A stretch of DNA of 64,000 bases from Nanoarchaeota archaeon SCGC AAA011-G17. GTDB taxonomy: Archaea > Nanobdellota > Nanobdellia > SCGC-AAA011-G17. Position 1 is the stretch's first letter; the number at the start of each line of letters is the position of its first letter. The notes beneath the pieces are model-generated. The model was given only the letters and a program-made list of their open reading frames with translations. It was not told the DNA's origin and did not search any database. The stretch covers positions 36,006 to 100,005 of the forward strand of contig AQRL01000035.1 in assembly GCA_000402515.1 (NCBI GenBank), written 5' to 3'. The position numbers were made by a program, and so were the translations under genes. Shown here one piece after another: positions 20,085-31,330 of the stretch.

Positions 20085-20363
20085 TTGCATTTTAAGACCT
20101 TGATGAGCCTAATCTCTGATAATAAAAAAGAGAAGATAAGAATGGATATATTAAGATTTCTTTATGATGAATATCCTAAAATGCTTTATACCTATGAGGT
20201 TGCGGATGCACTTACAAGGAATGATGAGTTTATTTTGGGTTTATTAATAGAACTGAGAGATAAAAAAGCAGTACATTGGATTGAAGAGACTAAAGGAGGA
20301 AAGATTAAGAGGAAATGGGGAATGAATGAACTGATATTCAAAACCTATAAGGAATTACTTTAA
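20085..20363 (+). CDS. small winged-helix protein
   Basis: 92-aa ORF, '[40 protein letters not shown]'. Confidence 0.35.
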
Positions 20364-21710
20364 TAACTTTTTAAGAACCAATTCGTGCCCTTTCCAGACC
20401 AGAGCTTCTTTTAGAACATCCTGGATTGTTGATGCGGGAATAATTTTTATCTTTTCCTGATTTTCTTTGGATAATTTAACATCTTGAATATTTGATTGGG
20501 GGATTATAACCCTTGATATACCTGCTTCAATTGCTGCTTCTATTTTTGGAGTAACGCCCCCTACTGCCAATACCTCCCCCCTTATTGATAATGAACCAGT
20601 CATTGCTGTGTCTTGTCTTATTGGAATTCCTTTGAATGCTGAAATGATTGCTGTTGCTACTGCTATTGAAGCTGAATCTCCTTCTACCCCCTCTGAGGCG
20701 GTTTGCAAAAACTGAATAAAAATATCATGTTTAACATCCTCGCCAAAATGTTTTAAAATAATTGCTGAAACATTCTTTACTGCTTCCTTTGCAATTATCC
20801 CAAGCTTTCCTGTTGCTACAAATTCTGATTTTTTTCCGCCGGGGGTTACTTCTGATTCTATTGGCAAGACAATTCCGGAGAATGCAAAACCATCCCCTAT
20901 AACTGCCAGACCATTAACTCTCCCTACTCTTTGTCCTTTTGTTATTATTATATCATATTTTTTCTTGTCTTCTATATACCTGTCTGCCATTTGCTGCTCT
21001 AGTGTTCTTGCGAGTTTTTTTGCTTCAATTATCTGTTTTCTATCTACTACATTTAATCCCTGTTCTTTTGCTAAATCCCCTGCTGCTCTTATTAATCCGC
21101 CAAGCTCTCTTAATCTTAATGTTAATTTCTCGGATGTATTTGCCCTTCTTTTTGCCTCATTTATTATTTCCTGAACAGCTTCATGAGTAAATGGGGGTAT
21201 TTTTTTGTCCTTTGCTATTTCCTGTGCTACAAACAAGGTCAATTTATTCCTGTTTTCCTGCGTATCATCTATCTCTGAATTCATATAAATTTCATAACCA
21301 TAACCCCTTATTCTTGATCTTAATGCAGGATGCATTCTTTTTATTGTCTCAACGTTTCCTGCTGCTACTAAAATAAAGTCTGTTGGAACTGGTTCTGACA
21401 TTGTTGTTGAGCCAGATGAACGTTCGGATTGCCCCTTAATCGGATATTTTTTTTCCTGCATTGCTGTTAAAAGTTCTTGTTGTGATTCTGTTGTTAGTGT
21501 TGCAACCTCATCCATAAATAAAACTCCCCCACTTGACTTGTGAATCATCCCTGGTATTAGTCTCTCATAGGCAGGAGTACCCAGACCCCCTGAATTCTTC
21601 ACTAGAATTCCATTTACTATTAGATTGCCTGACTTTGTAGTTAAATTATACAAATAACCCCTGTAAGACACTTTTTCTATTTTCTTTATTTTTTCTGTTT
21701 TTAGTTCCAT
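20355..21710 (-). CDS. lonB: LonB protease, C-terminal part: intein C-segment (39 aa) + AAA+ remainder + Ser-Lys protease domain
   Basis: Begins '[39 protein letters not shown]' (intein blocks F/G), then '[29 protein letters not shown]' (LonB sensor region). Catalytic 'GDSASIA' and a downstream Lys. Confidence 0.85.
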
Positions 21711-22115
21711 TTTTCCAATGATTGTTGTGTTAGGATGAAATTTAATATATTATTATTTTACAAAAACTTCTTCCCCTTTTTTTAGTTTTGAGGCTTCTGT
21801 ATACTGCTTTTTTCCTTTGTTATTAACTGCTATTTTGTGCTCTGGTGTAACTAACAACGTTTTCCCTGACTCTGTTGTTATTTTATATAGATAGGGTTTG
21901 TCTGATTTGTATTTATTAACTGAAAGTACTTCTACAGGCTGGATTTTCCCATTCTTTTCTGCTAATATGTATAATTCATCTTTTTTAAGATATACTGCTA
22001 TGTATCCCTTTTTCTTAATTAATTCTTTTTCGTGCTTTTTTAGTATTTTATTTACTTCTGTTGAAATATTTACTTTTTTTCCATTTTTTATGAGTTTATT
22101 GTTACCACTAAATGA
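21594..22115 (-). other. Mini-intein in LonB interrupted by tandem in-frame TAA TAA stops (N-segment 120 aa, C-segment 39 aa)
   Basis: Block A 'SFSGNNKLIKNGKKVNI' and block B 'LLVTPEHKIAV' lie in the upstream ORF. Blocks F/G '[21 protein letters not shown]|S' lie in the downstream ORF. Both are in the same frame, separated by TAATAA + 13 codons + ATG. Confidence 0.75.
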
Positions 22116-22730
22116 TTGTAACGGGTCATGAAGTACATCACCAAGCAATGCCCCTATTCTCGCCCCTGTTGCATCTAAGAAGGGTGCCTTTGACTGCTTA
22201 GAGTTATCAATTAGTAATTTTGGTATTTGTATTTTTGAAAAATTTATTCTTTTTCCAATATTAATAAATAAAATAAATCCTGCTAAGAATATCATTGAGC
22301 CTATCAGTGATGCTGCGGCCATTATATCTCCATATTGCTTTCTTACTATCCATGGGGTAATTAGAGAGATTATTAACAAAACAAAGAAAAGTATATTCTG
22401 GTTTTTTGTTGAAGCAACTGCCTGAATTTTTAGTTTATCTACTATTTCCTTTCCTTTTCCCTTTGCAACTGTTTTTATTAATGGGGTGTTATCATCAATG
22501 GGATTTGGATAAGACAAAATATCTTGTAATTTTTCTTCTGGCAATAATTCTGCAAGACCCTGAGCAAGCATACTCTTACCTGTTCCCGGATCTCCAATAA
22601 GAAGGATGTTTCTTCTTTGTTTGGCTGCTTTCTTGATTAAATTTACTGCTTCATTCTGACCTATAATCTGGTCTACTAATTTCTCCGGTATTTTAAGTTC
22701 CTTAGTTGTTTTAAATTTTAGATTGGTCAT
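21753..22730 (-). CDS. lonB: LonB protease, N-terminal part: AAA+ Walker A + membrane anchor + intein N-segment
   Basis: 'GDPGTGKS' Walker A. Two TM helices inserted in the ATPase domain (the archaeal LonB hallmark). 'PFLDATGARIGALLGDVLHDPLQ', then the intein N-segment. Confidence 0.85.
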   Translation of the reverse strand: MTNLKFKTTKELKIPEKLVDQIIGQNEAVNLIKKAAKQRRNILLIGDPGTGKSMLAQGLAELLPEEKLQDILSYPNPIDDNTPLIKTVAKGKGKEIVDKLKIQAVASTKNQNILFFVLLIISLITPWIVRKQYGDIMAAASLIGSMIFLAGFILFINIGKRINFSKIQIPKLLIDNSKQSKAPFLDATGARIGALLGDVLHDPLQSFSGNNKLIKNGKKVNISTEVNKILKKHEKELIKKKGYIAVYLKKDELYILAEKNGKIQPVEVLSVNKYKSDKPYLYKITTESGKTLLVTPEHKIAVNNKGKKQYTEASKLKKGEEVFVK

Positions 22731-24715: not shown

Positions 24716-26364
24716 ACGAGAACATCAGTTATTTTTTGAAAAGGGGTTTTTTGGTATCTCCTGATTTTTTAGATAAATTGAATTCTATTGATAAATCTGA
24801 ATTTTTTAAATTAATAGAAGAAAAAATAAATAATAAGGAGAATCTTATTTTATTAAACAATGATTTGAGCTCGAATATCTTTAGCGGGAACAAGTTAACT
24901 CTTAACTGGCTGGAATTTGATAATTCAAGAGTACTTTTTGAAAAAAATAAAAATAGTGAATTGTATAAAACTTTTTTGGATATCTTGAGTTATGATTTAG
25001 ATTCAAACAAAAAAGAAGAATTAAATCATTTATTAGAAGAAGTGAAAATAGATGAAAAAAATTTAGGATTAGCAGAAGAAAATGGCGATGAAAACAATGT
25101 TATTATCCTAAAATCTTATAATGATGAGTCTAAAAAGAGGGATATTCAGGATTTTGTTGCCTATTTTAAAAACAGATATGAATTTTTGAAGGAGGTATTA
25201 TCAAACAGAAAAGAATTACAAAATGCGATTTCGATTAAAAGATTGTTAGGCAGAGATAAGAATGAGAAAGGGGCTGTTTCTTTAGTAGGATTAATTTATG
25301 ACAAAAATATTACAAAAAATGGAAATATAATATTAAAATTAGAGGATAAAACAAGCATAATACCCCTAATTATTACTAAAAATAACCCCGAGATTTTTAA
25401 TTTAGCAAATAATCTGGTTTTAGATGAGGTTATAGGTATTAATGGCTTTTGTGGGGATAATGTTGTTTTTGTAAATAGTATTTTTTTCCCGGATGTTCCA
25501 CTAACAAAAGAATTAAAGAAATGTAATGAAGAAGTTTATTGTGTTTTTACTTCCGACTTACATATTGGAAGTAAATTATTTTTAGAAGAGGATTTTAGCA
25601 GGTTTATAGATTGGTTGAATTGTAAGGATTGTAATGATGAAGAAAAGAAGATTGTTGAGAAGATTAATTATCTTTTCATAGTGGGAGACCTTATTGACGG
25701 CATTGGCATCTATCCAGGGCAAGAAGAGGATTTGATTATAAAAGACGTATATAAACAATATGAAAAATTTGTTTATTTTATAACTAAGATTCCAAAAAGA
25801 ATAAAAATAATTATTTGCGGAGGAAATCATGATGCACTAAGAATTTCTGAACCCCAGCCAATATTAGAAAAAAATTATGTTGGGTCCTTATATGAAAAAG
25901 ATAATATTTTTTTTGTTACAAACCCTTCATTAGTGAATATTCAATCTTCAAAGGATTTTTCTGGTTTTGATGTTTTGATGTATCATGGATATAGTTTCCC
26001 TTATTTTGCAGATCTTGTTGATGCTATAAGAATGGAAGGGGGGCAGAAGAGGGCCGATTTAATCATGAAATTTTTATTACAAAGAAGACATCTTGCTCCC
26101 ACACATACTTCAAATTTATACATACCAGATGCCAATCAAGACCCCTTACTTATTGATAAGATTCCTGATTTTTTTATCACAGGGCATATCCATAGAGTAA
26201 ATAGTATCAATTACAGAAATATAACCGGACTGAATTGTGGGTGTTGGGTTAGCCAGAGTGAAGAGCAGAAGAAGAGAGGATTGGTTCCAGACCCATCTAA
26301 GATTTTTTTGGTTAATTTACAAACTAGAGAGGTCAAAATAAGAGATTTTAGTAAAAATGAGTAA
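24712..26364 (+). CDS. DNA polymerase II (PolD) small subunit DP1, calcineurin-like phosphoesterase/exonuclease
   Basis: Metallophosphoesterase motifs 'FTSDLHIGS', 'VGDLIDG', 'CGGNHD', 'GHIH'. Overlaps cdc6 by 4 nt and DP2 by 8 nt. Confidence 0.85.
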   Translation: MNENISYFLKRGFLVSPDFLDKLNSIDKSEFFKLIEEKINNKENLILLNNDLSSNIFSGNKLTLNWLEFDNSRVLFEKNKNSELYKTFLDILSYDLDSNKKEELNHLLEEVKIDEKNLGLAEENGDENNVIILKSYNDESKKRDIQDFVAYFKNRYEFLKEVLSNRKELQNAISIKRLLGRDKNEKGAVSLVGLIYDKNITKNGNIILKLEDKTSIIPLIITKNNPEIFNLANNLVLDEVIGINGFCGDNVVFVNSIFFPDVPLTKELKKCNEEVYCVFTSDLHIGSKLFLEEDFSRFIDWLNCKDCNDEEKKIVEKINYLFIVGDLIDGIGIYPGQEEDLIIKDVYKQYEKFVYFITKIPKRIKIIICGGNHDALRISEPQPILEKNYVGSLYEKDNIFFVTNPSLVNIQSSKDFSGFDVLMYHGYSFPYFADLVDAIRMEGGQKRADLIMKFLLQRRHLAPTHTSNLYIPDANQDPLLIDKIPDFFITGHIHRVNSINYRNITGLNCGCWVSQSEEQKKRGLVPDPSKIFLVNLQTREVKIRDFSKNE

Positions 26365-29300
26365 GGAAGATAGTGAAAAATATTTTGATGAAATAAACAA
26401 AAAGATCAATGTAGCTTATGCTATAGCAAGTGAAGCTAGAAAAGAGGGCTATGACCCTGTTGATTCTGTTGAGATTCCAATTGCAAAGAATATGGCTGAA
26501 AGGGTTGTTGGATTAATAAGTTCTATTGTACCACAAATCAAGGATACTAATATTGTTGAGAGGATTCATGAATTAGAGAAAGAGTATGGAAGTCAAGACT
26601 GGAGAGTTGCTTTGAAAATTGCTGAAGAGGTAACAAAAGAAAAATTTTGTAAATTTAAAGATAAATTGGGAGCAATGGAAGTTGGAATCAGAGTTGGGAT
26701 AGCTTATGTAACTAATGGGGTTGTTGCTAGCCCTTTAGAGGGATTTACCGGAATCAAAATCAGAAAAAGAAGAGATGGAGGAGAATATTTTTCATTGTTT
26801 TTTTCTGGACCCATAAGGAGTGCAGGCGGAACAGGGGCTAGTGTTAGTGTTTTGATTGGCGATTATATCAGGAAAATTATGGGCTATCAGAAATATGATC
26901 CCGATGAGAAAGAAATTAGCCGGTTTGTTATTGAACTCAGAGATTATCATGAAAAAATTACTAATCTACAGTATTTTCCAAGCGAAGAAGAATTAAAATT
27001 TATGGTTGAAAACTTACCTGTGCAGATAGACGGAGATCCTTCTGAAAAATATGATGTCAGTAACTATAAGGGATTGGACAGAATGGACACCAACAAATTA
27101 AGAAATGGCGTCTGTTTGGTTTTGGGAGAAGGATTAACACAGAAAGCCCCAAAATTATGGGCGAAGATAAATACCTGGGGAAAGGAGTTTGGAATGGATG
27201 ACTGGTTTTTCTTAGATAAATTTTTGAAACTACAAAAAAGTATGAAGGCCAAAGAAAAAAAGAGCGATGCAGATTCTAATGTAAAAATAAAACCGGACTA
27301 TACCTACATAAATGATTTAGTTGCTGGAAGACCTGTTTTGGGGCATCCATTGAGAAATGGTGCATTTAGATTAAGATACGGTAGGGCAAGAAATAGCGGA
27401 TTAAGCGGAACTGCAATACATCCAGCTACAATGATTATACTAAATGAGTATATTGCCATTGGAACACAATTAAAGTGGGAGAGACCGGGCAAGGGAACTG
27501 TTGTTAGCTCATGTGATAGTATTGAGGGACCAATTGTAAAACTAAACAACGGATGTGTTTTGTTATTAGAAAATGTAGATGATGCCAGAAAGTATTCAAA
27601 GGACGTTGAGGAAATTATCTTTTTGGGAGATGCTCTGATTTCCTATGGTGATTTCAAGAATAGAGCACATCCTTTAGTTCCTTGCGGGTATAATGAGGAA
27701 TGGTGGAAATTAGAATTTGATAAAGCAATTAAAAACAAAGGGATTATTGAAATTACTCAAGAACTGGATGTTGATAAAGAATTTGTAAAGAATTTGTTTA
27801 AGGAGAGATATGTCAAGGTTAGTTTTGATAATGCACTTAAGATTTCTAAAAAATTGGATATACCCATGCATCCAAGATGGACATATCACTTTAAAAATAT
27901 AAATCAAGAGCAATTTCTTAGTTTAATGGATTGGCTTGAGAATGTGAGTGTTAAAAGAGATGAAAAATTCAAGATTATTTTACCCTTTATTTTTGATACG
28001 GCGAAATTAGTTGAGAAACCGGATCCAAAGAGAGTTTTAGAATTATTAGGAATACCTCATCTTGTTGTAAATAAAGAGTATGTTGTTATAGAAGGAGATG
28101 ATGCAAAAGCCTTTGCCTTTAGCCTTGGATTCTTAGAAAAAAATATTGATGAAGACTTATTAAAATTAATTGGAAAGAATTTGAGAGAAGATATTTTAGA
28201 GTTGATAAATAAGATTTCTGGAATTAAATTCAGGGATAAGAATGGAACGTTTATCGGTGCTAGGATGGGTAGACCAGAAAAAGCAAAGATAAGAAAAATG
28301 ACAGGCAGTCCGCATGTTTTATTTCCGGTTGGAGCAGAGGGGGGGAGATTAAGATGTTTTCAAGAAGCATTAGATAAAAAAAGTGTTACTGCAGACTTTC
28401 CTGTTTATTTGTGTGAAGGCTGCAGCCGAGAAACAATTTATCCCACATGTGAATATTGCCATAAAAAAACCAAGAAAAGATATTATTCTAATAAGACAAA
28501 AATGTTTTTAGATGAACCTCCGGAAAATATTACAAAAAGTAATTTTGGAGAATATCTTCCCCATAGAAAGAAAGCAGTGGATATAAATTATTTCTTTGAT
28601 AGAGCAATGCAAAAATTGAGAATCAGAACATGCCCAGATTTGATTAAGGGGGTAAGGGGAATGAGTAATGAGGAGCACATTCCTGAGAACCTTGCTAAGG
28701 GGATATTAAGAGCATTTCATGATATTCAGGTAAATAAAGATGGAACCATAAGATATGATATGACTGAATTGCCCATAACTCACTTTAAACCTAAGGAAAT
28801 AGGAACAAGTGTTGAGAGATTAAAAGAATTAGGCTATGAAAAAGATATAGAAGGAAAAGATTTAATAAATGACGAGCAAATTTTGGAGCTAAAAGTACAA
28901 GATGTTATTTTACCAAGTTGTGACGGTTCTTTTGAAAGGGGAGCAGATGAGATTTTATTTAGGGTAGGTAATTTTGTTGATGATTTATTAGTCAAATTTT
29001 ATGATATGGACTCATTTTATAATTTTAAAGAAAAGGGAGATTTAGTTGGTCATTTAGTTTTATGTCTGGCTCCACATATTTCTGCAGGGATGATTGGCAG
29101 AATAGTTGGATTTAGCAAGACGCAGGGATTTTATGCACATCCATATTTTCATTGTGCTGTCCGTAGAGATTGTTTTGATTATAATACCTTCATTACAATA
29201 AAAGAGAATGATATTTGGAAAAATTTGAAGATTGGTGATTTAGTAGAAAGATTAAATCCAGAGAAGGTCGTTGATAATTTTAATACAAAAGAGATTAAGG

Positions 29301-31330
29301 TTGAAAACTATAAAACCATTGGTGTTGTAAAAAAATTGAGGGAAGTTAATATTAATAATTTTACAAAACACAGTAGACAAATGATGTATAAACTTAGGAC
29401 CTCCTTAGGTAAGGAGGTGATTGTTACAGAAAATCATAAGTTCATTATTGATGGTAAAATTAAAAGAATGTGTGATTTGAATATTGGGGATAGGTTACCC
29501 TTGGCATATAAAATAAATATAAAATCAAAAGATAAAAGAGAAATTAACTTATTGAAATATCTGAAGGATGAGAATTTAATGGTTAGGGGAATTAGTAATA
29601 TTCTCTCTAAATTAAAACAAGATAAGATTATTAAAATTCTTGATGGATTAGAAATAAGTAAAAAACAGTTTATGAATTTTAGGTTGAGAGATAGTTACCC
29701 CCTTTCTTTTGTTTTGGGGTTGGATAAGAATATTCAAAATGAAATTTTTAATATCGGAAAAATTGCTGCGAAAAGAGATAATATAGAAACTCCAATAAAA
29801 ATAAATTTAGGTGATGATTTACTTGAAGTTATTGGTTTGTATATAGCTGAAGGTTATTCCAGAACAGTTAAGCCAAAGAAAGGTCTAAATCAGGTATATA
29901 TTGCATCAAATGATGTGGATATTAAAAATTTTATCAAGAAGGTTATTAAAAAATATTTTGGATTGATCCCTACAGAAAATAAAAATGATAGAGTTACCTT
30001 TTCTTCAAAAATATTTTATCTGTTCATCTCAAAAATTCTTGGCTGCGGTAATAATGCTAAAAATAAAAGAATACCTAGTCTGTTTTTAGATTTGCCTTGT
30101 GATAGATTGGCTTGTGTTTTGAGGGGATATTATGAAGGGGATGGAAGTGTTTCTTTGAGTGACAGGAGAGTTAGTTGTGATAGTGTAAGTGATGGTCTAC
30201 TTTATGATTTGGAATTTTGTTTAGGTCGATTTGGAATTTTTGTTAAGAGATATAAATATAAAAAACAGCCAGGTCCAAAGGTTAGACAGTTTTATATTAA
30301 CAAAAAAAGAGACATCCCTGAATTTGAGATAACTAAATTAATCATTGGTTCAAACTTTGTTGATAATTTTATGAAGATTGGATTTTTATCTGAAAGGAAA
30401 AAACGTATTTTAAGATTTCATAAAGATAAAAAATATTTGGGCATGAGGATTGATTATGATGAGAATTTTGTTTATGATCCTGTAATTTTAATAGATTATG
30501 TTGGTGAAAAAGAGAGTTACTGTTTAAATATTGATTCTGATAATCATTTAGTTTTAGCAAATTCAATTATTAGTAAACAATGCGATGGCGATGAGGCCGC
30601 GGTTATGCTGCTGATGGATGCTTTACTAAACTTTTCAAGGAAATATTTACCCGGGCATAGAGGTGCAAAGCAGGATGCCCCCTTGGTTCTAACCTCTTGC
30701 TTAATCCCCGGAGAGGTAGATGATATGGTTTTTGATATGGATATTGTCAATAGTTATGGTCTAGAATTTTATGAGGCTACCCAGGAATATAAACTTCCGG
30801 GAGATATAAAATTAGAGCTTATTAAAAATAGATTAGGAAAAGATGAACAGTATTTTAATTTTGGATTTACCCATGATACTACAGATATTAATCTGGGTGT
30901 TACAATAAGTGCTTACAAAAAGCTACCAACAATGATGGAAAAGGTTTTTGGACAGATGGATATTGCTGAAAAAATAAGGGCTGTTGATGAGGATGATGTT
31001 GCTAGATTAATTATTGAAAGGCATTTTATGAGAGATATTAAGGGTAATTTAAGAAAATTCAGCCAGCAGGAATTTAGGTGTGTTGCATGTAATGAGAAAT
31101 TCAGAAGACCTCCATTAACAGGCGTTTGTCTGAAATGTGGCGGAAAAATAATATTTACCATTGCTGAAGGAGGGATTACCAAATATATGGAGCCTGCTTT
31201 AAGCTTGGCTGAAAAATATGACCTGCCTGCTTATCTTAGGCAGGATTTGGAGCTGACACAGAAGAGAATTGAAAGTGTGTTTAGCAAAGACAAGGAGAAA
31301 CAGGAAGGATTGGGGAAGTGGTTTGGTTAG
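26357..31330 (+). CDS. DNA polymerase II (PolD) large subunit DP2, containing one 470-aa LAGLIDADG intein
   Basis: Extein is about 1187 aa. The catalytic motif is split: 'HPYFHCAVRRD' | intein | 'CDGDEAAVMLLMD'. C-terminal Zn finger 'CVACNEKF...CLKCGG'. Confidence 0.85.
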   Translation: MSKEDSEKYFDEINKKINVAYAIASEARKEGYDPVDSVEIPIAKNMAERVVGLISSIVPQIKDTNIVERIHELEKEYGSQDWRVALKIAEEVTKEKFCKFKDKLGAMEVGIRVGIAYVTNGVVASPLEGFTGIKIRKRRDGGEYFSLFFSGPIRSAGGTGASVSVLIGDYIRKIMGYQKYDPDEKEISRFVIELRDYHEKITNLQYFPSEEELKFMVENLPVQIDGDPSEKYDVSNYKGLDRMDTNKLRNGVCLVLGEGLTQKAPKLWAKINTWGKEFGMDDWFFLDKFLKLQKSMKAKEKKSDADSNVKIKPDYTYINDLVAGRPVLGHPLRNGAFRLRYGRARNSGLSGTAIHPATMIILNEYIAIGTQLKWERPGKGTVVSSCDSIEGPIVKLNNGCVLLLENVDDARKYSKDVEEIIFLGDALISYGDFKNRAHPLVPCGYNEEWWKLEFDKAIKNKGIIEITQELDVDKEFVKNLFKERYVKVSFDNALKISKKLDIPMHPRWTYHFKNINQEQFLSLMDWLENVSVKRDEKFKIILPFIFDTAKLVEKPDPKRVLELLGIPHLVVNKEYVVIEGDDAKAFAFSLGFLEKNIDEDLLKLIGKNLREDILELINKISGIKFRDKNGTFIGARMGRPEKAKIRKMTGSPHVLFPVGAEGGRLRCFQEALDKKSVTADFPVYLCEGCSRETIYPTCEYCHKKTKKRYYSNKTKMFLDEPPENITKSNFGEYLPHRKKAVDINYFFDRAMQKLRIRTCPDLIKGVRGMSNEEHIPENLAKGILRAFHDIQVNKDGTIRYDMTELPITHFKPKEIGTSVERLKELGYEKDIEGKDLINDEQILELKVQDVILPSCDGSFERGADEILFRVGNFVDDLLVKFYDMDSFYNFKEKGDLVGHLVLCLAPHISAGMIGRIVGFSKTQGFYAHPYFHCAVRRDCFDYNTFITIKENDIWKNLKIGDLVERLNPEKVVDNFNTKEIKVENYKTIGVVKKLREVNINNFTKHSRQMMYKLRTSLGKEVIVTENHKFIIDGKIKRMCDLNIGDRLPLAYKINIKSKDKREINLLKYLKDENLMVRGISNILSKLKQDKIIKILDGLEISKKQFMNFRLRDSYPLSFVLGLDKNIQNEIFNIGKIAAKRDNIETPIKINLGDDLLEVIGLYIAEGYSRTVKPKKGLNQVYIASNDVDIKNFIKKVIKKYFGLIPTENKNDRVTFSSKIFYLFISKILGCGNNAKNKRIPSLFLDLPCDRLACVLRGYYEGDGSVSLSDRRVSCDSVSDGLLYDLEFCLGRFGIFVKRYKYKKQPGPKVRQFYINKKRDIPEFEITKLIIGSNFVDNFMKIGFLSERKKRILRFHKDKKYLGMRIDYDENFVYDPVILIDYVGEKESYCLNIDSDNHLVLANSIISKQCDGDEAAVMLLMDALLNFSRKYLPGHRGAKQDAPLVLTSCLIPGEVDDMVFDMDIVNSYGLEFYEATQEYKLPGDIKLELIKNRLGKDEQYFNFGFTHDTTDINLGVTISAYKKLPTMMEKVFGQMDIAEKIRAVDEDDVARLIIERHFMRDIKGNLRKFSQQEFRCVACNEKFRRPPLTGVCLKCGGKIIFTIAEGGITKYMEPALSLAEKYDLPAYLRQDLELTQKRIESVFSKDKEKQEGLGKWFG
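29171..30580 (+). other. Intein in DP2 (Hint domain + LAGLIDADG homing endonuclease), Cys1 ... C-terminal Gln
   Basis: Starts 'CFDYNTFITIKENDIW'. LAGLIDADG motifs 'LLEVIGLYIAEGYS' and 'CVLRGYYEGDGSVS'. Ends 'YCLNIDSDNHLVLANSIISKQ' immediately before extein 'CDGDE'. Length is an exact multiple of 3 (1410 nt). Confidence 0.8.

Follow-up and report, generated by a model that had tools for sequence, protein, structure and literature searches.

Organization of the LonB locus

The 64,000-nt stretch of the Nanoarchaeota archaeon SCGC AAA011-G17 assembly analyzed here (contig AQRL01000035.1 of GCA_000402515.1, positions 36,006 to 100,005; termed the window) encodes the membrane protease LonB in two neighboring open reading frames (ORFs), and the break between them falls inside an intein that interrupts the LonB sequence. 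Coordinates are those of the window and features lie on its minus strand unless stated otherwise. The N-terminal ORF (N-ORF, 22730..21753, 325 amino acids, aa) comprises LonB residues 1-205 followed by the intein N-fragment (IntN), and the C-terminal ORF (C-ORF, 21710..20355, 451 aa) comprises the intein C-fragment (IntC) followed by the remaining LonB. Both ORFs share one frame and one strand and are 42 nt apart. An earlier reading made from the letters and ORF translations only (the sequence-only reading) had given the coordinates, lengths, shared frame, 42-nt gap, and tandem TAA of this arrangement, and all were exact.

The LonB N-extein (22116..22730, 205 aa) contains the Walker A motif GDPGTGKS and two hydrophobic membrane segments, and its C-terminal end reads ...GALLGDVLHDPLQ. 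It is followed by IntN (21756..22115, 120 aa), which begins SFSGNNKLIKNGKKVNI with the Ser1 codon at 22115-22113, includes block A (SFSGNNKLI) and block B (TPEH, within TPEHKIAV), and terminates in KLKKGEEVFVK with its last sense codon at 21758-21756. The gene is closed by two in-frame stops read directly from the sequence (21750..21755), TAA at 21755-21753 and TAA at 21752-21750, and 13 sense codons (21749-21711) separate these tandem stops from the ATG of the downstream gene (21710-21708). IntC (21594..21710, 39 aa; MELKTEK...NGILVKN) carries blocks F and G and ends in an Asn (codon 21596-21594), and neither IntN nor IntC contains a cysteine. The LonB C-extein (20355..21593, 412 aa plus stop) opens with Ser+1 (codon 21593-21591) and includes Walker B (VLFMDEV) and the AAA-LID, as well as the Lon_C protease domain, in which the serine of GDSAS and the protease lysine are present. 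The G+C content of the window is 31.6%, and scans of its 64 kb for tRNA and Rfam RNA genes returned none.

The two ORFs match adjoining parts of the LonB model TIGR00764 (608 positions), the N-ORF covering model positions 2-196 (E 1.4e-61) and the C-ORF positions 195-600 (590.6 bits for the C-ORF alone against a cut-off of 516.6). Because these matches abut, the 159 extra residues sit at one exact point of LonB, immediately after GALLGDVLHDPLQ, where the sequence-only reading had placed the insertion. The C-ORF also matched Pfam Lon_C (E 6.6e-32) and LonB_AAA-LID, and across both ORFs the Walker A and B motifs, the membrane insertion, and the Ser-Lys protease of the full-length LonB equivalog are all present.

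Intein profiles, predicted fold, and catalytic residues

IntN and IntC joined end to end scored 47.4 bits against Pfam Intein_splicing PF14890 (cut-off 35.8, E 2.3e-12), and the N-ORF scored 33 bits against the intein N-terminus model TIGR01445 (cut-off 24.5). IntC alone was weakly matched by Pfam Intein_splicing (E 0.024, model positions 119-155), and with TIGR01443 (cut-off 15.6) the C-ORF reached 13 bits and the joined fragments 15.5 bits. The Hint-domain assignment of the sequence-only reading was therefore borne out above the cut-offs for the joined fragments and the N-ORF and was marginal for IntC alone. The window IntC is 60-89% identical to the IntC of approximately 80 other species.

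The fused IntN and IntC were modeled with AlphaFold2 (AF2) over a family alignment built from complete database proteins of the N-half and C-half types, giving a mean predicted local distance difference test score (pLDDT) of 91.8 and a predicted template modeling score of 0.84; the fusion point (residue block 121-130) had a pLDDT of 85 vs. 94-98 on either side, and AF2 on the single sequence of the fused intein gave an unusable pLDDT of 39. The top Foldseek matches in the Protein Data Bank (PDB) were the archaeal mini-inteins PhoCDC21-1, TvoVMA, Mja KlbA, TFIIB, and RadA (template modeling scores 0.77-0.85, the best at 0.80-0.85), followed by the fused split inteins Aes123 PolB1, NrdJ-1, gp41-1, and Npu DnaE, with a Foldseek probability of 1.00 to Npu DnaE (4kl5), gp41-1 (6riz and 6qaz), and NrdJ-1 (8ubs). 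As modeled, the joined fragments have the HINT or intein splicing-domain fold.

The window intein has all four residues of the class 1 covalent chemistry, namely Ser1, the TPEH of block B, the C-terminal Asn, and Ser+1. In an unrestricted scan of the residue following HDPxQ, 43 of 69 loci had Ser, 15 had Cys, and 11 had Thr, with no other residue seen, and such interchange among exactly Ser, Cys, and Thr fits a catalytic nucleophile rather than a structural residue. Block B was kept as TxxH or SxxH in 66 of the 69 loci, and His98 was invariant in family alignment A2. The IntC end read [VC]KN↓S (the arrow marks an intein boundary) in 64 of 66 loci, a scan whose pattern demanded N[SCT] so that its Asn and +1 counts are not independent; in 14 further loci with a complete IntC, located by tool-reported coordinates and no residue filter, all 14 ended KN↓S. 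The terminal Asn and Ser+1 were invariant in both alignments (A1 and A2), and the window carries the family residue at every invariant alignment column. Ser+1 is the native LonB residue, since 28 related LonB loci without an intein read HDP[LF]Q↓SGGLGTP.

A further pattern was seen in alignment A2 near intein residues 66-69 (VNKY), where the conserved Lys/Arg is followed by Tyr in most Ser1 members and by His in most Cys1 members (VNKH, ANRH). This position may be equivalent to the "NX" histidine motif of Ser1 inteins (PMC10189870), the correlation here being reversed.

A second intein was found in the window within the 1657-aa DNA polymerase II large subunit DP2 (26357-31330, plus strand), which contains a contiguous intein with LAGLIDADG_3 according to precomputed Pfam hits; together with the split LonB intein, this brings the inteins of the genome to at least two.

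Distribution of the split in related archaea

A protein query spanning the junction retrieved 267 proteins, the best 120 of which were examined. More than 90 of these 120 were N-halves of approximately 315-350 aa that covered 59-64% of the query at identities from 100% down to 43%, and the C-halves among them covered approximately 31% (IntC and part of the C-extein only); no contiguous protein covering both sides of the junction occurred in the best 120 of 267. The N-halves all ended a few residues past a K-L-K-x-G/F-D/E-x-V motif and the C-halves all began with the Met of IntC. A species survey, in which one genome per species was scanned with an IntC profile, yielded 80 loci from Woesearchaeota/Nanoarchaeota assemblies and a metagenome scan added 42 loci. 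The positions of N-half and IntC were re-checked with tool coordinates and tblastn for approximately 15 loci, and L011 and L017 have an upstream N-half.

Across the 80 species loci, the IntC ORF started at an ATG 37-45 codons (mostly 39) before N↓SGGLGT, and a stop shortly upstream closed the IntC frame in all loci except the contiguous L054, giving a two-ORF architecture in approximately 79 of 80. The orthologous loci to which the sequence-only reading had pointed as a check thus share the two-gene arrangement. In the relatives the N-half stop is TAA, TAG, or TGA, the halves are often in different frames, and the gap between them is as small as -4 nt, where the ORFs overlap as ATGA (at least 19 species), and as large as approximately 3 kb.

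Five configurations were distinguished in the survey. In approximately 30 species, IntN continues in frame into an endonuclease domain of approximately 350 aa (470-500 aa after HDPxQ) and IntC is separate; its ATG is overlapped by the TGA stop of the upstream gene as ATGA in at least 19 loci, the other gaps being 1-225 nt. In approximately 20 species (e.g., L061, L025, L065, and L079) the order is N-half, a separate endonuclease ORF (345-375 aa), and C-half, the endonuclease 3' end overlapping the IntC start and extra genes sometimes being inserted. Approximately 15 species have no endonuclease, or fragments only, between the halves, including short gaps of -4 nt (L014), 82 nt (L008), 96 nt (L023), 147 nt (L022), and 158 nt (L069). 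A single species (L054) has a contiguous mini-intein, and in three (L013, L015, and L020) the 4 kb flanking IntC on each side contain no N-half. The metagenome loci added a contiguous full-length IntN-endonuclease-IntC intein in L095, the same form cut by a contig end in L098, a second contiguous mini-intein fragment (P0143), and a different, canonical intein at the same LonB site ending HN↓T (P0162). An artificial endonuclease-IntC junction used as query in a protein search had retrieved no contiguous full-length form, two of which (L095 and L098) were later supplied by the metagenome scan. The 120/39-aa break of the window lies where L027, L036, and L095 carry the endonuclease domain and L054 a short linker, in agreement with the endonuclease-loop position assigned to it by the sequence-only reading.

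These comparisons bear on whether a single LonB precursor could be made from the window locus. Readthrough or recoding of the stops would yield one precursor with a 174-aa cis-splicing mini-intein, as the two ORFs share a frame and no stop interrupts the 13 codons between them. It would have to pass two consecutive TAA codons, TAA being the commonest stop of the window (found at the end of 32 of its 55 long ORFs), and the in-frame spacer corresponds to an out-of-frame relic of another gene (see below). Readthrough also cannot be the mode of the family, because the halves of the relatives are mostly out of frame, ATGA-overlapping, or kilobases apart, and its probability for the window is regarded as negligible. 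RNA-level joining and ribosomal bypass were rejected on the same grounds, the relatives having kilobases of DNA and opposite-strand genes between the halves; in the close relative L082, for example, an opposite-strand 352-aa gene, a TrmB-family gene, and an endonuclease gene intervene. With halves that are out of frame, overlapping, or parted by opposite-strand genes, the family can be expressed only as two polypeptides. The sequence-only reading had offered a mini-intein broken by stops with an internal restart, and also a sequencing error at the stops, readthrough, or pseudogenization; none of these accords well with relatives that differ in frame, stop codon, and gap size up to 3 kb with opposite-strand genes. 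The comparison instead indicates that the LonB split is old and clade-wide and is not a freshly broken mini-intein.

Extra genes were observed upstream of the endonuclease between the LonB halves of four relatives (L082 3985-6988, L009 962-3969, L075 1095-3950, and L079 1027-4001). In L009, L075, and L082 these are an opposite-strand gene of 344-359 aa, which in L009 has a CxxxCxxC motif and is radical-SAM-like in appearance, and a LonB-strand gene for a 236-246 aa regulator of the TrmB family, an assignment that comes from Pfam in L082 and, in L009 and L075, from similarity in sequence, size, and position. L079 has instead three LonB-strand ORFs of 88, 89, and 248 aa. The recurring order of TrmB gene, endonuclease gene, and C-half might represent a transcription unit.

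Further intein sites were also observed in LonB. Some relatives have a second site at ...SGAMVRxEAVP↓C, where the window is without an intein. P0064 and P0076 (217 aa) consist of the first IntC, a middle extein, and a second IntN that ends ...KLKIGDDVKTK at the canonical split site, and the second IntN of L018 (4001-6700) runs on into a homologous endonuclease domain followed by a stop. A LonB of the P0064, P0076, and L018 type would be encoded in three parts, and joining them would take two rounds of trans-splicing. In P0002 (L086 35-907) the N-half begins MHRFVANGIISHN↓TGKS, the C-terminal end of another intein inside Walker A (GxxGTGKS), on a contig (L086) too short to judge whether that intein is split.

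The endonuclease and the 42-nt spacer

Most relatives carry the 345-375 aa homing endonuclease ORF (e.g., L061 2937-4010 and L025 2855-3922) between the halves or the equivalent domain fused to IntN. No family was matched in a Pfam scan of the endonuclease and a sequence search of the PDB returned no meaningful relative, GlmU being dismissed as a spurious match (E 0.07). The endonuclease region of the intein-containing RtcB model NF038162 (positions 217-455) was matched by 11 of 11 members (best E 2.6e-28), and three members also matched the intein-containing RFC model of NCBIfam. The endonuclease is of the kind nested in archaeal inteins, as these matches lie in the RtcB and RFC intein endonuclease regions, and by eye the motifs LGATFGDGGIF and FFGSxFGxELG look LAGLIDADG-like. 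The protein additionally has a conserved N-terminal module (IIxEQDIINTY..RQQEQCRLY..GYKRIAK..KTRWWH) and a helix-turn-helix-like C-terminal tail (GYGAExAMxxLNLTPxxLYxxLN).

The window has no such gene between its LonB halves, and the origin of the spacer (21701..21749, overlapping the IntC start codon) is indicated by its match to the 3' end of the L061 endonuclease gene. The 36 nt before the window IntC ATG are identical to their L061 counterpart at 29 of 36 positions and to those of L075, L079, L068, L073, and L078 at 22-25 of 36, and upstream of these 36 nt identity drops to background (10-11 of 24). Read in the endonuclease frame, the spacer resembles the L061 terminus ...SLTFILNQEPLEKWN and the L075 terminus ...SLNFILKQENLEKWN, each directly followed by a stop, with the stop falling inside IntC codons 3-4. 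The 13 "sense codons" are accordingly an out-of-frame relic, approximately 36-45 nt long, of the endonuclease gene 3' end. On this alignment the window lineage is deduced to have lost the endonuclease gene and anything else between the halves, from just past the N-half stop to approximately 12 codons before the endonuclease stop, and the C-half has retained its native start context.

Selection and mobility

Ratios of non-synonymous to synonymous substitution (dN/dS; Nei-Gojobori, window vs. relatives, with IntN pairs limited to those with unsaturated dS) were 0.06-0.15 for IntN, 0.085-0.13 for IntC, and 0.05-0.17 for the exteins. The similarity of these values shows that purifying selection acts on both intein fragments as strongly as on LonB. 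The split state has been kept by selection, being conserved down to 43% N-half identity and accompanied by low dN/dS.

The intein and extein identities were discordant for several pairs. Compared to L086, the window is 58% identical in the N-extein and 90% in IntN; compared to L061, 60-69% in the exteins and 83-87% in the intein; and compared to L084, 97% in the N-extein and 88% in IntN. This discordance, seen in pairwise identities only and with dS near saturation for some pairs, suggests that the split intein with its endonuclease moved between LonB alleles and that the element is still mobile.

Proposed trans-splicing of LonB and alternative explanations

The window LonB is probably a "fractured" gene whose product is held together by a naturally split class 1 intein, a conclusion held with good confidence. 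Each of two separate ORFs is fused to part of the host protein, and the conclusion builds on the sequence anatomy, the HINT fold, the clade-wide split, the purifying selection, and the endonuclease relic, which we regard as established; expression of both ORFs and trans-splicing are inferred from them. The split-intein alternative of the sequence-only reading gains from both segments being Hint/intein segments, from the intact catalytic residues, from a dN/dS of approximately 0.1, and from the same architecture in more than 80 related species. Two neighboring genes would be translated separately into a membrane-anchored LonB 1-205 joined to IntN (120 aa) and an IntC (39 aa) joined to LonB 206-617, and IntN and IntC would associate into the HINT fold. 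Ser1 would then attack the upstream peptide bond (N-O acyl shift), Ser+1 would accept the N-extein (trans-esterification), and the terminal Asn would cyclize, resulting in a seamless LonB of approximately 617 aa with the junction ...HDPLQ-SGGLGTP... and in released intein fragments. Full-length LonB is thus most likely made by joining two proteins after translation. As for its history, a bifunctional intein with a nested endonuclease, present at the LonB site in relatives, would have been broken in the clade into separate IntN, endonuclease, and IntC or into IntN-endonuclease and IntC, after which the window lineage would have deleted the endonuclease gene and any cargo, leaving 42 nt that include 36 nt of the endonuclease 3' end.

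Several observations weigh against this interpretation, the first of which concern the splicing chemistry. Three helper positions in the window intein are non-canonical, with the block F Asp replaced by Asn (LYNLTT), no block F His, and a penultimate Lys in place of the class 1 penultimate His. Such helper positions (penultimate His, block F Asp/His) are not known to be universal among active inteins. The unusual residues are family-wide, KN↓S occurring in 64 of 66 loci and LYN[LVI]TT in 65 of 66, and this conservation favors a variant mechanism rather than decay, with activity being predicted only. The missing helpers lower confidence in activity and may still be compatible with membership in class 1. 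In addition, well-studied natural split inteins typically, though not by definition, have oppositely charged fragments, whereas the net charge in the window is +15 for IntN and +5 for IntC, and both fragments were positive in 28 of 29 loci scored. The non-canonical catalysis-assisting residues (block F Asn and penultimate Lys) would suit a LonB that is split yet never ligated, in which the intein fragments serve as a high-affinity non-covalent dimerization module as in phage Aeh1 NrdA, and a fragmented enzyme that assembles without an intein is documented (cited in PMC2677866, PMC3045599). That residue 1 is only ever Ser, Cys, or Thr (69 of 69 loci), that the terminal Asn is invariant and TxxH nearly so, and that the contiguous same-site relatives L054 and L095 must splice if their LonB is to be active, the AAA+ domain being interrupted by the intein, make such non-covalent assembly improbable.

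The second set of contrary observations concerns the junction itself. The exact 42-nt junction was absent from the 80 genome and 42 metagenome loci and was found only in the source single-cell assembly. The closest environmental relatives (L082-L085, L127, and L087) have either approximately 3 kb between the halves (L082, L087, and L127) or a different gene following the N-half, with other DNA immediately past the N-half stop in L084. An assembly or amplification artifact, i.e., a chimeric or collapsed junction that removed approximately 1-3 kb from a true locus resembling L082 or L127, could produce this picture in a single-cell amplified genome, the nearest extein relatives (L084, 97% identical, and L127) having different DNA past the N-half stop. 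Such an artifact would, however, have had to keep both ORFs and join the N-half stop to a point 36 nt before the IntC ATG; endonuclease-free states arose independently in other assemblies, and the contig was deposited in two versions that agree in this protein. It is rated as highly improbable, and even if it were true the gene would remain split and the spacing alone would change.

The third concerns expression, for which the upstream regions of the 55 long window ORFs were inspected by eye. Genes heading transcription units have a TTTAWATA-like box at approximately -34..-27 from the ATG (TTTAAAA at -34..-28 for the LonB N-half), and boxes centered approximately 30 nt before the ATG imply mRNAs with a very short leader or none; genes internal to operons frequently show GGAGG or GGTG instead. 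For the C-half, the Shine-Dalgarno-like signal is no more than a weak GGA at -7..-5, and the TATA-box-like TATTAAAT (21740..21747, -37..-30 from the C-half ATG) was partly created by the deletion junction and may be a chance occurrence, as TATA-like motifs can arise by chance at 31.6% G+C, leaving an own promoter speculative. The C-half might be expressed from a transcript shared with the N-half or from a near-leaderless one of its own. The weak Shine-Dalgarno-like sequence and the uniqueness of the 42-nt junction among the loci recovered would fit a recent pseudogenization, in which the deletion took the C-half expression signals and LonB is dead or dying here despite a functional split in relatives, and pairwise dN/dS mostly reflects history before the deletion. 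Nevertheless, both ORFs (325 and 451 codons) are intact at this G+C content, the window retains every family-invariant column, and the 36 nt of native start context before the ATG were kept. Furthermore, at least five other lineages (L008, L023, L022, L069, and L014) are independently endonuclease-free with short gaps and intact fragments, and no second LonB copy is present in the 64-kb window, to which that search was confined. Pseudogenization is consequently considered quite improbable, and a split LonB rejoined by trans-splicing is preferred.

A broader claim is put forward tentatively, as possible rather than probable: that LonB in a large part of the Woesearchaeota/Nanoarchaeia is obligatorily trans-spliced, with the intein in effect a permanent device for assembling a membrane protease and perhaps for controlling it; that this one family preserves every step of gene fracture (contiguous bifunctional intein, IntN-endonuclease fusion with separate IntC, three genes, endonuclease loss, and unlinked halves), including three-piece LonBs needing two orthogonal split inteins; and that it is the first large mesophilic family of naturally split, canonical-site inteins, cysteine-free in its Ser1 members. 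If true, post-translational ligation would be needed to make an important quality-control protease throughout a clade of archaea with reduced genomes. The LonB family also allows the published model for the origin of split inteins to be tested in nature across many species, and the window intein, a natural Ser1/Ser+1 split intein without cysteine from a lineage found in groundwater, has dozens of diverged homologs that could be screened; the second LonB intein site of some relatives might be orthogonal to it.

Comparison with known split inteins

The literature searched contained no paper on this split LonB intein family and none joining split inteins with Woesearchaeota, DPANN being mentioned only incidentally, and the LonB inteins found in it were contiguous euryarchaeal ones. 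Ten contiguous LonB inteins of Euryarchaeota have been reported (PMC4760082, Table 2), which share the host protein (a P-loop AAA+ protease) with the window intein but are contiguous and cis-splicing. Contiguous inteins at the exact window site (HDPxQ↓S/TGGLGTP) occur in the uncultured relatives L054, L095, and P0162. On these comparisons LonB would be a new host protein, and its bearers a new lineage, for natural split inteins.

The window resembles the fractured genes of Dassa et al. (2009) in having the two halves in original order and orientation at one locus, with IntN ending the upstream gene and IntC starting the downstream gene. In their model the downstream gene takes its start from the 3' end of the endonuclease gene, which overlaps it (Dassa et al., 2009), and likewise the endonuclease of the relatives lies between the halves with its 3' end overlapping or supplying the C-half start. 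The window, in which only a relic of the endonuclease lies between the halves compared to an intact gene in approximately 20 relatives, corresponds to stage III of that model (endonuclease lost). The two systems differ in that the host here is a cellular DPANN archaeon vs. mainly phage, the host protein a membrane protease vs. DNA synthesis and repair enzymes, and the endonuclease of the archaeal intein-nested kind vs. GIY-YIG or Vsr-like. Approximately 30 species here also differ in having the endonuclease fused to IntN with IntC alone separate, and a series of contiguous, fractured, endonuclease-free, and unlinked forms exists within the one LonB family.

The DNA polymerase B of Nanoarchaeum equitans (Neq Pol) is another natural canonical-site split in a reduced genome of an archaeon of the DPANN type, and likened by description rather than by sequence it shares Ser-type nucleophiles and the lack of cysteine with the window intein. 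The host protein is different, and the Neq Pol halves are far apart in the genome compared to 42 nt in the window. Neq Pol requires 50-70°C to be active (PMC10189870), and the LonB intein family is presumably mesophilic, since its members come from groundwater, sediment, and marine metagenome assemblies according to the record titles. [quoted passage not shown] The lack of cysteine in a natural split intein makes the window locus notable.

The split inteins Ssp/Npu DnaE, gp41-1, NrdJ-1, and IMPDH-1 share with the window intein the canonical split site, an IntN of approximately 100-123 aa, an IntC of approximately 35-40 aa, and the HINT fold. They have Cys1 and oppositely charged fragments, whereas the window intein has Ser1/Ser+1, is free of cysteine, and has two positive fragments; the penultimate residue is Lys in the window instead of their His, and the DnaE halves are unlinked in the genome whereas those of the window LonB are adjacent.

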